The translations under genes were made by a program, and so were the position numbers. Below the pieces are notes generated by a model that was not told the DNA's origin, made no database searches, and saw nothing but the letters and a program-made list of their open reading frames with translations. Positions 10,065-49,385 of a DNA stretch of 51,438 nucleotides are shown in pieces. Where the stretch lies: the sequence record PZ754631.1; one strand, written 5' to 3'. The number at the start of each line of letters is the position of its first letter. Position 1 is the stretch's first letter. Source of the stretch: a phage.

Positions 10065-10134
10065 TTACTGTACAATCATGATACACGATTCATAATCAAT
10101 TCTTTTAACAAAAAGTGCTATCAAGGAGAAAGAA

Positions 10135-31671: not shown

Positions 31672-32077
31672 TAAAGGCGATTATCTGGAGTTTTACGAAA
31701 GAGATCCGACGGATACGCTAAAAGAGGAATCTCACCAGATCGGGGCGTTTCAATGGTTAACTTATGCTCATCCTGAATTTCTTGCCTGGCATACTAAAAA
31801 TGAGGGTGACAAGGGGATCGCCACGGCAATGATGGATCAGCAAGCCGGACTAGTTAAGGGCGTAAGTGATTTTATCATCCTGATTGGATTAAAAGGCCGT
31901 TACCCTTTCGCGGCTATTGAGATGAAACGCGTCAATAAGTCTGGCAAGGGTAAGGCTTCACCAGTCAGCAAGGAGCAAAAAGCCTTCTTGCGCCGTGTGC
32001 GTGAGCTTGGCGGATTCGCTGCCGTAACATACGGATATAAGCAATTCATGATCGCAGTAGAATACATGATGAAATAG
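31658..32077 (+). CDS. VRR-NUC domain nuclease
   Basis: PD-(D/E)XK-like GVSDFIIL...AAIEMK motif; stop TAG embedded in promoter module. Confidence 0.6.
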   Translation: MAMTDKGDYLEFYERDPTDTLKEESHQIGAFQWLTYAHPEFLAWHTKNEGDKGIATAMMDQQAGLVKGVSDFIILIGLKGRYPFAAIEMKRVNKSGKGKASPVSKEQKAFLRRVRELGGFAAVTYGYKQFMIAVEYMMK

Positions 32078-32117
32078 CACTTTTTGTTAAAACAGGCGCG
32101 AAGGATTGCGCCATAAT
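32072..32117 (+). promoter_or_regulatory. early promoter cassette (stop codon embedded)
   Basis: AAATAGCACTTTTTGTTAAAAC, 19 bp with GC hairpin, CATAAT. Confidence 0.5.
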
Positions 32118-32857: not shown

Positions 32858-33115
32858 ATGCAGAAAGAAAGAAGAGTTTTACTTAATGAAGATGGCGAAT
32901 TTCTTTTGTATCGCGCTATGGTATGCGATGCACTTGATAAAAACCCTAACGTGAAAAAGATGATTGATTGCGATCCGTGGGAATTTTCAAGCGCATTAGA
33001 TATGAGCTTTGAGGAGACAAAAAAACTCCCGCTTGAAAAATGGCACGAACAAATCAGAAATGACATGCAAGAATTTGTCGATTCCTGGAATTTTCAGAAC
33101 GGAATGATCCAATAA
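32858..33115 (+). CDS. hypothetical protein
   Basis: 85 aa ORF coupled to dam; followed by promoter module. Confidence 0.5.
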   Translation: MQKERRVLLNEDGEFLLYRAMVCDALDKNPNVKKMIDCDPWEFSSALDMSFEETKKLPLEKWHEQIRNDMQEFVDSWNFQNGMIQ

Positions 33116-33158
33116 TAGCACTTTTTGTTAAAACGCCCGGCCTTGTGTCGGGCATAAT
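33114..33158 (+). promoter_or_regulatory. early promoter cassette
   Basis: AATAGCACTTTTTGTTAAAAC, 19 bp hairpin spacer, CATAAT. Confidence 0.5.
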
Positions 33159-38869: not shown

Positions 38870-38915
38870 ATTATGCCAGGCTTTTACACCTGGCTTTTAA
38901 CAAAAAGTGCTATTT
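38870..38915 (-). promoter_or_regulatory. early promoter cassette (minus)
   Basis: minus strand AAATAGCACTTTTTGTTAAAA, 19 bp hairpin (GCCAGG..CCTGGC), CATAAT. Confidence 0.5.
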
Positions 38916-40281: not shown

Positions 40282-40326
40282 AATATACCAATCAGGCGCA
40301 TACCGGTTTTAACAAAAAGTGCTATT
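40282..40326 (-). promoter_or_regulatory. early promoter cassette (minus)
   Basis: minus strand motif, 19 bp, TATATT. Confidence 0.5.
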
Positions 40327-40787: not shown

Positions 40788-40831
40788 AATGTACAGGAAC
40801 ACGAGGATTGAGTTTTAACAAAAAGTGCTAT
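40788..40831 (-). promoter_or_regulatory. early promoter cassette (minus)
   Basis: minus strand motif, 19 bp, TACATT. Confidence 0.5.
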
Positions 40832-41925: not shown

Positions 41926-41971
41926 AATGTACCCGATCAGGATGATTCAGTTTTAACAAAAAGTGCTATTT
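41926..41971 (-). promoter_or_regulatory. early promoter cassette (minus), first of leftward arm
   Basis: minus strand motif, 19 bp, TACATT; RBS and ATG of gene 41887. Confidence 0.5.
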
Positions 41972-42637: not shown

Positions 42638-43096
42638 ATGACTATGACAAGTAAAGAATTTTGCGATATGTTGCGAGTCAATGCAGCCTCACTAGCTAAC
42701 GGTGATGTTAGCGAACTGCAAATCAAGGAGCTTGACTTGCAATGTAATATTGCGCCGGAAGACTTGAGGAAAATTAACGCCTCATACATCAGAACGATTA
42801 TGAATCGAACGCCGGAGGTGAAGGCTGTTGGCGCGGTGAAGGTTGAACGCGTTCGAGGTGATGCGGATATTCCTGATTGTTATCGCGTAACCATTAACAA
42901 GAATCCAAAGCGCCGCTTGCTGACAGATGAAGAATTGCCAAAACTTGAAAGCAAGTGGCGAGCAAAGTTTATTGCTCAACTGCTTAAAACACAGCCGCGA
43001 ATCAGCGATCTGGAAGGTGAGCGCCTGGAAGGTGCAGCAATCGCACTTGAGCGAATGAATGAAATGCTTAACGAGATGGTAAAGATGGAGGATTAA
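42638..43096 (+). CDS. hypothetical protein (first gene of rightward early arm)
   Basis: 152 aa; RBS AGGAG; downstream of consensus TTGACA box. Confidence 0.55.
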   Translation: MTMTSKEFCDMLRVNAASLANGDVSELQIKELDLQCNIAPEDLRKINASYIRTIMNRTPEVKAVGAVKVERVRGDADIPDCYRVTINKNPKRRLLTDEELPKLESKWRAKFIAQLLKTQPRISDLEGERLEGAAIALERMNEMLNEMVKMED

Positions 43097-43098
43097 TT

Positions 43099-43362
43099 AT
43101 GGTTATGATGAAAATTCGCAAAGCAACAGATGATTTCATTCGCAGTAATGCGGAAAGCGGTCGCCTGTATGTTGCATTCGTGGAACGCAAGAGAAAGCGC
43201 GGAAAGATCGTTGCGACTGAGCGGTTATTCAAGATGAAGCCGAGAAATGAATGCGAATGCAAAAAGGATTCCGGTTTTTACTTCGGATGCTGTTGCAGCA
43301 CGATAGAAAACGCGCGAATGCTTATAGATGAAGGAAAAGTATACTTCAATCCGGCAGAATAG
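43099..43362 (+). CDS. hypothetical Cys-rich protein
   Basis: 87 aa; CECKK...GCCCS cluster; stop TAG embedded in promoter motif. Confidence 0.5.
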   Translation: MVMMKIRKATDDFIRSNAESGRLYVAFVERKRKRGKIVATERLFKMKPRNECECKKDSGFYFGCCCSTIENARMLIDEGKVYFNPAE

Positions 43363-43402
43363 CACTTTTTGTTAAAACGCCAGGCGCAAAGCCTGGCATA
43401 AT
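43358..43402 (+). promoter_or_regulatory. early promoter cassette (stop codon embedded)
   Basis: AATAGCACTTTTTGTTAAAAC, 19 bp hairpin GCCAGG..CCTGGC, TG-n-CATAAT. Confidence 0.55.
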
Positions 43403-43821: not shown

Positions 43822-43865
43822 ATAGCACTTTTTGTTAAAACGCCAATCTGAAAACCTGGCATAAT
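43820..43865 (+). promoter_or_regulatory. early promoter cassette
   Basis: AATAGCACTTTTTGTTAAAAC, 19 bp, CATAAT. Confidence 0.5.
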
Positions 43866-43906
43866 GCATCACATAGGGCGGCACGGGCCGCAGTAACGAG
43901 GATAAT

Positions 43907-44301: not shown

Positions 44302-44356
44302 CCAACCATGCCCCACTTCACGTGGGGCCAATAACTAATAACAGAGGTAAAATCCT

Positions 44357-44402
44357 GAATAGCATTTTTTGTTAAAACTCAAAAACGATAACCAGGCATA
44401 AT
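44357..44402 (+). promoter_or_regulatory. early promoter cassette
   Basis: GAATAGCATTTTTTGTTAAAAC, 19 bp, CATAAT. Confidence 0.5.
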
Positions 44403-44456
44403 AAATCACATAGGGCGGCACGGCGTCGCCCACAAAACCAATCAGGAGAAAGCACC

Positions 44457-45362
44457 ATGTTAAAACTTGCTAACATTAAATTCCCGATCACTTTCCAATC
44501 TCGCGGCGTTGGTCACTTCATGTTTTCAGACGAAAATACATGCACTAAGTTTAACGAATACGGCAAGCCTGATGTTTCAACAATGGAGATTGAGCACTTC
44601 ATTGATGCGCATAACAGGCACTACAACTCACTCAAAGACTACGGCTATGCAATGCCAGGCTACACTTGCTTGCACTATAAGCCATACAGGGGCCAGGTGT
44701 TACCAGTTCGCTCACCAGAACGCGCAGAGATTCCGGCGGTCGAGATGAAAACCTGCGACTATAAAAAATTGTGGTGCTTAAGCGTGGATAACATCAAGTA
44801 TCCGATCGTATTCCACACTGTTGGTTACTCAACGATTCGTTATACGTCACCAGACAACGGCGTTTATAGCGATGGTCAGAAATCAGATTTTAAAGTTGAT
44901 TTCTTTGTTGATGCTCATAACAAATTCAATCCGCACAACGAAAAGGATAAAGTGTATTACGTGGAAGATATTACTAAACACTTGTTTGGAGAAACTCCAT
45001 TCGGCGGCGGGAAGACGTCTATTGCTCAGGCTATAGATAACGTTGCGCGACGTATTGGTGAGCAGATTCACAGTCAAACAATTAAGGCGTCCGGAGGCTG
45101 GCGTATTGATAAGAGCGGCATTGCCTGTCAAGAAATCGTAACGCAGGGCGCGATTGAAGACATGCCGCTTGGCGCCACGCTAAAAGGCGTCCAAATTGCG
45201 GATGGCACATGGTTTGAATTAACGGCTAAGCCAAAGACGATCGAGATTCATGATGACGTTGTTATTCTTCTTCTTCACTATGGCAGCGCGAAAAACCGGA
45301 CTGTTGCAGGTGAGATAAGCATCAAGCGCGGAACGATGGTTAAGTGGAACGTCAAAGTGTAA
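44457..45362 (+). CDS. hypothetical protein with internal tandem domain duplication
   Basis: 301 aa; N-terminal and central segments are homologous (NIKFPITF...FIDAHNRHYN vs NIKYPIVF...FVDAHNKFNP). Confidence 0.6.
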   Translation: MLKLANIKFPITFQSRGVGHFMFSDENTCTKFNEYGKPDVSTMEIEHFIDAHNRHYNSLKDYGYAMPGYTCLHYKPYRGQVLPVRSPERAEIPAVEMKTCDYKKLWCLSVDNIKYPIVFHTVGYSTIRYTSPDNGVYSDGQKSDFKVDFFVDAHNKFNPHNEKDKVYYVEDITKHLFGETPFGGGKTSIAQAIDNVARRIGEQIHSQTIKASGGWRIDKSGIACQEIVTQGAIEDMPLGATLKGVQIADGTWFELTAKPKTIEIHDDVVILLLHYGSAKNRTVAGEISIKRGTMVKWNVKV

Positions 45363-45405
45363 ATAGCACGAATTGTTAAAACTCAAATGTGGGGTCAGGT
45401 ATAAT
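45361..45405 (+). promoter_or_regulatory. early promoter cassette
   Basis: AAATAGCACGAATTGTTAAAAC, 18 bp, TATAAT. Confidence 0.5.
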
Positions 45406-47409: not shown

Positions 47410-48000
47410 ATGAAACGCGACATTATCATTCTTAACGGACCGCCAGGAGTTGGCAAAGATACGCTTGCGGCATACTTAACGGGTCATCGTTACGCAGCGG
47501 TTAAAGCGTCATTTAAACAGCCTATGTTCGATATTGCATTCTCCATGCTTGGCGTTTTCCGATATGACGAGTTCATTGATCTGTATAACGACCGTGAGCA
47601 GAAAGAAAAGCCTCAAGCAATCTTGCAAGGTAAGTCTCCGCGACAATTCATGATCTGGATTAGCGAAGAAGTCATGAAGCCAGCTTTTGGCGAGCAATAT
47701 TTTGGGAATCGCATGGTTGAGCAAGTACACGAGATGTACAGAGATTTAGCTGTTGTAATTAGTGATGGCGGATTCCCTGAAGAAATCAAGCCGCTCGTTA
47801 AGGCGGGCCATGAAGTTCACATTTGCCGACTGCATCGCGAAGGATTCACGTTTGATGGCGATTCGCGAAACTATATTGACCTGAGCGGATACCATCACCG
47901 CGTCAAGCATTACGACTTCACAATGACTGATGGCGAGCCAGAAAAGACTGTTGACGAGATCATCAAAACTGTCCAGTGGAAACACATTAAGATCAAATAG
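47410..48000 (+). CDS. P-loop kinase (dNMP kinase-like)
   Basis: N-terminal IIILNGPPGVGKDT P-loop resembling phage deoxynucleoside monophosphate kinases; RBS GGAGG. Confidence 0.6.
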   Translation: MKRDIIILNGPPGVGKDTLAAYLTGHRYAAVKASFKQPMFDIAFSMLGVFRYDEFIDLYNDREQKEKPQAILQGKSPRQFMIWISEEVMKPAFGEQYFGNRMVEQVHEMYRDLAVVISDGGFPEEIKPLVKAGHEVHICRLHREGFTFDGDSRNYIDLSGYHHRVKHYDFTMTDGEPEKTVDEIIKTVQWKHIKIK

Positions 48001-48040
48001 CACGAATTGCTAAAAGCGGGGCGCAATGCCTCGCTATAAT
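47995..48040 (+). promoter_or_regulatory. early promoter cassette
   Basis: AAATAGCACGAATTGCTAAAAG, 19 bp hairpin, TATAAT. Confidence 0.5.
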
Positions 48041-49054: not shown

Positions 49055-49342
49055 ATGGCTAAAAGCAATCGTAAAATGTTGATTAACGCATTCGAAAAGG
49101 CAGCGCTTGAGCGTGGTTGGAATGACTCATTTCACACAGCAAACTGTATCCGCCGTTACGGATTCAAGAATTGCCGATCCTGGGCGCGTCAAATGGCTTC
49201 ATGGTATGATCTTGATGCGCATTACCTTGATATGGATTGCGCCCTGGTTGAAATGATTGAGCAGGCCGCATTAGAGGATCGACCATTAACGCAATCTGAT
49301 TTTGACGATTTTGTGCGCGATGAAATCTATTACATGAGCTAA
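49055..49342 (+). CDS. hypothetical protein
   Basis: 95 aa; RBS AGGAGG; stop adjacent to promoter motif. Confidence 0.5.
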   Translation: MAKSNRKMLINAFEKAALERGWNDSFHTANCIRRYGFKNCRSWARQMASWYDLDAHYLDMDCALVEMIEQAALEDRPLTQSDFDDFVRDEIYYMS

Positions 49343-49385
49343 TAGCACTTTTTGTTAAAACTTCCGCGAGGGCATTTGTTAAAGT
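49341..49385 (+). promoter_or_regulatory. early promoter cassette (weaker -10)
   Basis: AATAGCACTTTTTGTTAAAAC, 19 bp, TAAAGT. Confidence 0.4.

Follow-up and report, generated by a model that had tools for sequence, protein, structure and literature searches.

A hypothetical protein of T1-like phages combines two divergent, homologous N-terminal modules with a C-terminal module predicted to form a β-barrel

The stretch of DNA analysed here (the window, 51,438 bp, the full genome size for the group) belongs to a phage of the Drexlerviridae/Tempevirinae, and the region under study shares 86–90% nucleotide identity with Escherichia and Shigella phages of the Tempevirinae, with the Hanrivervirus phages Henu8 and SFP17 as its closest matches. 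At the locus (Table 1), an open reading frame on the plus strand encodes a 301-aa protein, in agreement with an earlier, sequence-only reading of this DNA, and is preceded by a Shine-Dalgarno sequence, a recurrent promoter-like cassette and, farther upstream, a DUF7174 gene and an 87-aa gene for which searches of Pfam at E 1e-3 and of PHROGs at E 1e-5 returned no match. Tempevirinae orthologues of the protein span 289–310 aa, and wherever a relative is annotated the entry reads ‘hypothetical protein’ (Henu8 gp11, SECphi27 gp30, Bas07 bas07_0071), an entry to which the Henu8 paper adds nothing further, and a six-frame HMM scan of the genome found no paralogues elsewhere. As a side observation, 12–18 records labelled ‘Campylobacter phage’ (e.g., MG065680.1 A113 and MG065687.1 A136) are 77–90% identical to the region; they carry no annotation and give the host as C. 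jejuni, an odd label for Tempevirinae.

Table 1. Features at and around the locus of the 301-aa protein, in window coordinates
Feature	Position	Strand	Remarks
Direct-repeat copies, examples	10103-10121, 38895-38913, 40307-40325, 40813-40831, 41951-41969	-	
Direct-repeat copies, examples	32074-32092, 33115-33133, 43359-43377, 43822-43840, 47997-48015, 49342-49360	+	
DUF7174 gene	42638-43096		152 aa; clear match, E 5.8e-44
87-aa neighbour gene	43099-43362		DUF4884 according to the annotation of relatives
GC-rich hairpin	44310..44328	+	7-bp stem GCCCCAC/GTGGGGC, 5-nt loop; after the stop of a 70-aa gene, without U tract
Direct-repeat element	44359..44377	+	ATAGCAtTTTTTGTTAAAA = ATAGCATTTTTTGTTAAAA; putative UP/-35 part of promoter
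-10-like hexamer CATAAT	44397..44402	+	19 nt past TTAAAA
5' leader hairpin	44413..44431	+	GGGCGGC/GUCGCCC; -14.1 kcal/mol, z -1.6
Shine-Dalgarno AGGAG	44444..44448	+	8 nt 5' of ATG; read from sequence
CDS	44457..45362	+	301 aa (stop included), N1-linker-N2-linker-C
N1 module	44457..44696	+	Residues 1-80; extra divergent copy; pLDDT 89-96
Linker 1	44697..44774	+	Residues 81-106; pLDDT 33-54
N2 module	44775..44990	+	Residues 107-178; positional counterpart of the T1-type single N module
Linker 2	44991..45131	+	Residues 179-225; variable, low-confidence helix/coil; pLDDT 35-58
C module	45132..45359	+	Residues 226-301; predicted seven-stranded SH3-like beta-barrel
Next direct-repeat copy	45363..45381	+	1 nt past stop codon; then TATAAT ending 45405; for next gene

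The upstream element of the cassette is a copy of an already known Tempevirinae direct repeat with the consensus aaATAGCACnnnTTGnTAAAA (ATAGCACnnnTTGnTAAAA), of which the window holds 19 copies against 0.26 expected by chance (the additional sites in Table 1 are examples out of these 19). In 7 of 7 cassettes aligned between 40.3 and 45.4 kb, a -10-like hexamer (CATAAT, TATAAT, TACATT or TATATT) lies ~19 nt past TTAAAA, and a promoter consensus scan that admits spacers of 16–18 nt only did not call the TTAAAA-19 nt-CATAAT arrangement. The sequence-only reading had assigned the gene its own promoter cassette and had termed the protein early: the recurrent cassette does stand before the gene and again directly after it, but its promoter function, as well as the timing of expression, is deduced from sequence and position. 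Our literature search yielded no transcriptome for the T1-like phage group. In phage TLS, the same 21-nt direct repeat is oriented with transcription and found ~76 nt 5' of start codons, its role being left open by the authors between a stoperator, an enhancer site and a UP element (PMC11447400).

Two further elements flank the cassette. The GC-rich hairpin on its 5' side folds with -14.1 kcal/mol (z -3.0), was not called in a terminator scan and could be involved in RNA stability or processing instead of serving as an intrinsic terminator. Furthermore, the cassettes at 43822 and 44359 are followed by a common leader, CACATAGGGCGGCACGG (43867-43890 and 44404-44431), that may represent a conserved 5'-UTR element, with hairpin folds whose z scores (-1.2 and -1.6, respectively) are not significant.

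One alternative is that the 301-aa protein is itself a DNA-binding regulator of the 19 ATAGCAC...TTGnTAAAA sites, i.e., an enhancer-binding or stoperator-type factor as envisaged for TLS, whose tandem N modules would read them. No factor is known to bind the repeat, and neither an RNA polymerase nor a sigma factor is encoded by the phage (PMC11447400); the repeat element has been reported across T1-like phages, as has the protein family, and bipartite sites would suit tandem modules. Against this, the searches revealed neither an HTH nor any other family or fold that binds DNA; with a pI of 8.1, the protein is close to neutral (net charge +2.5, 35 D+E versus 37 K+R, and N2 at pI 6.0); relatives with two N modules are strongly acidic (P0145, pI 4.5; P0139, pI 5.3), which argues against DNA binding; and variants with the C module only or with multiple N modules exist. 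We consider a repeat-binding regulator highly improbable.

Turning to the protein itself, residues 2–54 and 107–156 of the 301-aa chain are homologous. In BLASTP comparison of residues 1–100 with residues 101–301, residues 2–54 pair with 108–156 at 28% identity and 31.6 bits, with an E value of 7e-7 that holds for the small search space of such a self-comparison. Smith-Waterman alignment gives the repeat a score of 71, and the best of 5000 shuffles scores 60 (mean 27.8, sd 4.8; Gumbel p ~5e-6). When the first 100 residues of 162 orthologues are turned into a profile, hhalign aligns it to the N module of the single-module family with a probability of 98.8% and an E value of 4.9e-17 over 75 columns, and a module HMM finds two stretches in the 301-aa protein, 1–68 (E 8.9e-14) and 107–174 (E 1.4e-26). 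The homology put forward in the sequence-only reading for residues ~1–60 and ~105–165 is thus borne out by these comparisons, and the self-alignment statistics on which that reading had been staked are significant. At the DNA level, the trace of the repeat comes down to one 27-nt stretch of 78% identity (44590-44616 versus 44896-44922) over the F(I/V)DAHN motif; its spacing of 306 nt equals 102 codons and the trace is consequently in frame, and the survival of such a mere remnant indicates that the duplication, if there was one, is ancient.

An AlphaFold2 (AF2) model of the 301-aa protein, computed from a 39-sequence alignment (mean pLDDT 78.6; pTM 0.33), features three confidently predicted domains (1–80, 105–178 and 226–300) separated by low-confidence linkers with pLDDT values below 50 at residues 85–102 and 180–225. 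The N module is an α/β unit of ~65–75 aa that is predicted with similar confidence when modelled alone (pLDDT 94.7 for N2), and in the model both copies adopt a similar order of elements, a β-meander (three or four strands) and then a helix (pLDDT >90), a fold without an assigned known relative. The two copies represent divergent subtypes: the family motif HNxxNPxN is retained in N2 but missing from N1, whose tail instead carries a strongly conserved DYGYAMPGYTCxHYKPY sequence. The third domain, a C-terminal module spanning residues 226–301 and present in more of the family's architectures than any other module, had been left out of the earlier two-copy view. Kinship between the N and C modules was rejected, with an hhalign probability of 0.2%.

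Two homologous domains in one chain had been read as a pseudo-dimeric architecture, and the first half of that statement stands. In a true pseudo-dimer, N1 and N2 would associate about a pseudo-twofold axis and together present a single, composite binding surface, which the single-module relatives would create by homodimerisation. Homodimers have commonly been replaced by duplicated proteins in the course of evolution, the predicted secondary structure elements of the two homologous copies follow a similar order, and the 26-residue, strongly conserved linker 1 is long enough to allow back-folding. Nevertheless, the AF2 model offers no confident inter-domain arrangement, and the combination of three confident domains, low-confidence linkers and a pTM of 0.33 does not support a packed pseudo-dimer; moreover, an obligate dimer is ill-suited to a family whose members carry 0, 1, 2 or 3 N modules, and the two copies have diverged into subtypes with different C-terminal motifs. 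On balance we regard a pseudo-dimer as unlikely.

The C module carries the motifs IEDMPxGA, IE(V/I)HDD and GExxIKRGT, and among 39 diverse family members residues E234, P237 and E263 are invariant, with E286 invariant or nearly so and H265, D266 and D267 conserved in most. Its predicted fold recalls the five- or six-stranded SH3-like/KOW barrels of the translation machinery (EF-P domain I, 6j7m_M; EfpL, 8s8u_B; the L2 C-terminal domain; the eIF5A N-domain), with which it shares the barrel topology in the model. A C barrel that docks on the ribosome or on RNA in the manner of the EF-P, eIF5A, L2 or Pelota barrels could in principle redirect host translation. Yet the two groups have no sequence relationship (13–15% identity and no Pfam match), the Pfam families KOW, EFP_N and Ribosomal_L2_C are absent from the 301-aa protein and from the 39 relatives scanned, the domain context differs, the surface is neutral to acidic, and the level of similarity is typical of generic small barrels. 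A role as a translation or RNA factor strikes us as improbable.

The conserved acidic and histidine residues of the C module (E234, E263, H265, D266, D267 and E286) could form a metal or active site, and as such they would be the core of an enzyme, for instance one with the early host-DNA degradation function of T1 and TLS, whose responsible early products have not been identified (PMC11447400). Set against the conservation of this cluster are the modelled fold, a small all-β SH3-like barrel rather than a known nuclease fold, the lack of any enzyme family hit in the libraries searched, and the absence from the sequence of the PD-(D/E)xK or HNH spacing. We deem an enzymatic function very improbable.

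The linkers differ markedly from each other. Linker 1 has the highest conservation of all segments, with a majority-residue frequency of 0.94 among 162 orthologues, and linker 2 shows the most gaps and the highest entropy of the same alignment. Such strong conservation despite low AF2 confidence is a pattern typical of peptides that fold on a partner, and we infer that linker 1 may be a candidate short linear motif of this kind. Translation could also begin internally at its conserved Met97 and yield a T1-like N2-C product; the EC147 annotation has a separate N2-C open reading frame in the linker-1 part of the gene.

Nei-Gojobori estimates from 11 distinct Tempevirinae coding sequences give the whole gene a dN/dS of 0.21 and show that N1 (0.21), N2 (0.15), the C module (0.20) and linker 1 (0.17) are under purifying selection, which implies that each of these parts is functional and, for N1 and N2, that both N copies are maintained by selection. 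The constraint on linker 1 equals that on the folded domains, and the relaxed regions are limited to the N1 loop formed by residues 24–44 (0.41) and to linker 2 (0.31).

We then asked how the three-module protein relates to its homologues. An exhaustive HMMER scan of 1.84 billion cluster representatives retrieved only 41 clusters at E ≤1e-3, and the family is small and phage-restricted; 108 records of our phage collection contain the full-length form, and a second large search with a single-module profile mostly led back to the close Tempevirinae proteins already found, with little gain. The family has a catalogued core in PHROG 7116, whose profile covers residues 107–300 over its positions 1–173 of 173 (E 4.4e-73) and matches a second stretch in addition. 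PHROG 7116 comprises functionally unassigned T1-type proteins of 160–190 aa such as AZS32503.1 of phage T1 (MK213796 2904..3389), which share with the 301-aa protein the same N and C modules, at 35–41% identity over the common part, and the same locus 5' of polynucleotide kinase. Phage T1 and other T1-type relatives, with genes of ~480–560 nt, match residues ~108–300 only in tblastn, indicating that the added part is the N-terminal ~105 aa; consistently, both repeats of the 301-aa protein map to one 504-nt stretch in phages UP30 and ECO104. In other words, whereas PHROG 7116 members are built from a single N module and a C module (~165–190 aa), the 301-aa protein carries an extra divergent N module and a conserved linker (residues 1–106) in front and is an expanded N-N-C variant. 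PHROG 10425, in turn, consists of stand-alone C modules of ~80 aa (e.g., Cronobacter phages CS01 and ESP2949-1; P0149, P0151 and P0157) that share the barrel with its IEDMPxGA, IEVHDD and NIKRGT motifs but have no N module.

An HMM census of 204 family proteins assigns 165 to the NNC architecture, 19 to NC, 12 to C only and 6 to N only, with single cases of NNNC and NCNC, so that the N-module count ranges from 0 to 3 across the family. The C module takes part in the largest number of architectures, whether alone, after one to three N modules or after unrelated N-termini, and the N module precedes an unrelated C-terminus in some proteins. We checked the fusion partners (P0160, P0132, P0158 and P0161) for functional clues and found none, all of them being functionally unassigned. 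The 374-aa metagenomic protein P0083 has an N1-N'-N2-C organisation in which a third, divergent N module is placed exactly within linker 1, and the distant lineages P0139, P0145 and P0146/P0148 possess two N modules that were apparently gained separately. Natural split genes break at the linkers (N1 / N2-C in EC147; N1N2 / C in tonnikala), which fits separable modules, but sequencing errors may explain both cases.

The NCNC protein P0121 (375 aa; Shigella phage 2019SD1 gp57) was rejected as a real architecture: its ~187-aa units are exact copies and its C-terminus is frameshifted, which together make it look like an assembly or annotation artefact. The corresponding stretch of the 2019SD1 genome (L009; NC_049820.1, 1501-2952) contains a frameshift in N1, then the exact tandem ~187-aa unit, then a C-terminus that is out of frame, and the probable artefact has spread into databases (P0121; UniProt A0A6M5CCR1).

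How the second N module arose is less clear-cut than its presence. Domain duplication is common among phage ORFans, and an internal tandem duplication had been proposed from the sequence; the homology of the two segments stands, but duplication is only one of several possible origins. A crude neighbour-joining tree calculated for 34 N modules does not join N1 and N2 as sisters, although so short a domain allows no firm conclusion, and the distant single-module protein P0152 contains an N1-type module; fusion or module shuffling is therefore as possible as intragenic duplication. In distant relatives the gene lies 3' of DUF7174/DUF4884 and 5' of the polynucleotide kinase/phosphatase gene (PNKP). 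Both contigs retrieved for P0139 (two N modules) and P0152 (one N1-type N module) place the family gene in the rightward small-gene block 5' of PNKP, and in the P0152 contig it comes after the DUF7174 and DUF4884 genes. We hold these statements on architecture and evolution with high confidence. With them, a protein listed as ‘hypothetical’ in >200 T1-like phage genomes, including those of the widely used model phages SECphi27 (gp30) and BASEL Bas07 (bas07_0071), receives a domain map (N1, linker 1, N2, linker 2, C) and can be described as a well-documented but functionally anonymous modular ORFan, the two-N variant of a catalogued Drexlerviridae family.

Searches for function returned no enzyme or defence family for the 301-aa protein in sequence and profile comparisons with Pfam, NCBIfam, PADLOC and the PDB; in particular, Pfam and the PADLOC-DB defence models each gave no family at E ≤1. 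Foldseek comparison with BFVD returned uncharacterised family members only at E ≤1e-3 and, below that level, weak matches to small phage proteins, and our literature searches on anti-defence genes or transcriptomes of the Drexlerviridae turned up nothing on the gene. Several specific identities were considered and rejected: the RAZR trigger of SECphi27 is Gp77, an Erf-like protein; the protein that triggers Mokosh has 128 aa; CapRel is triggered by Gp54, a different small barrel; and a DNA mimic of the Ocr/ArdA type would be strongly acidic, which the 301-aa protein, with its near-neutral pI of 8.1, is not.

Gp54 is nonetheless informative as a precedent. This small β-barrel protein of Bas11 (Pfam PF25180), also from the Drexlerviridae, has no assigned function and is non-essential in the laboratory, and the immunity protein CapRel (CapRel-SJ46) senses it directly (PMC11578894). 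It demonstrates that proteins of such a kind in the Drexlerviridae interact with host immunity proteins. In one of the loci compared (L020), a Gp54-family gene is found in the leftward block that adjoins the locus of the 301-aa protein.

As the best overall explanation, we tentatively propose that the 301-aa protein is soluble and modular, probably lacks enzymatic activity and acts as an accessory protein of T1-like phages through multivalent binding of a host or defence target; the binding, host-interaction mechanism is our best guess within this proposal and a somewhat more doubtful one. A pseudo-dimer, a translation or RNA factor, a repeat-binding regulator and an enzyme are each less well supported than such a modular binder. 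In the proposed mechanism, host RNA polymerase would transcribe the gene as its own unit from a promoter corresponding to the family’s recurrent ATAGCAC...TTGnTAAAA / (C/T)ATAAT cassette, and the gene’s position in the small-gene block 5' of polynucleotide kinase suggests early expression. The protein would work by binding and not by catalysis. Its conserved C barrel would contribute the function that stays constant, be it docking or oligomerisation; the N modules, possibly together with the conserved linker-1 peptide, would be recognition units that can be repeated, and their number would determine the valency of the protein or the spectrum of host or defence targets that it engages.

Several observations temper the binder model. 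The selection seen at the level of whole regions is purifying and bears no arms-race signature, the presence of the family at the same locus in several Drexlerviridae lineages would fit a housekeeping role as well, and the conserved acidic and histidine residues of the C module, as a candidate metal or active site, also speak against pure binding. All the same, a single locus, early by position and sequence, that varies in module number among lineages makes for a tractable experimental candidate, and, should the N module turn out to recognise a host immunity protein or a hub protein, its varying copy number would be a clear case of domain-accordion evolution affecting a counter-defence gene of phages.
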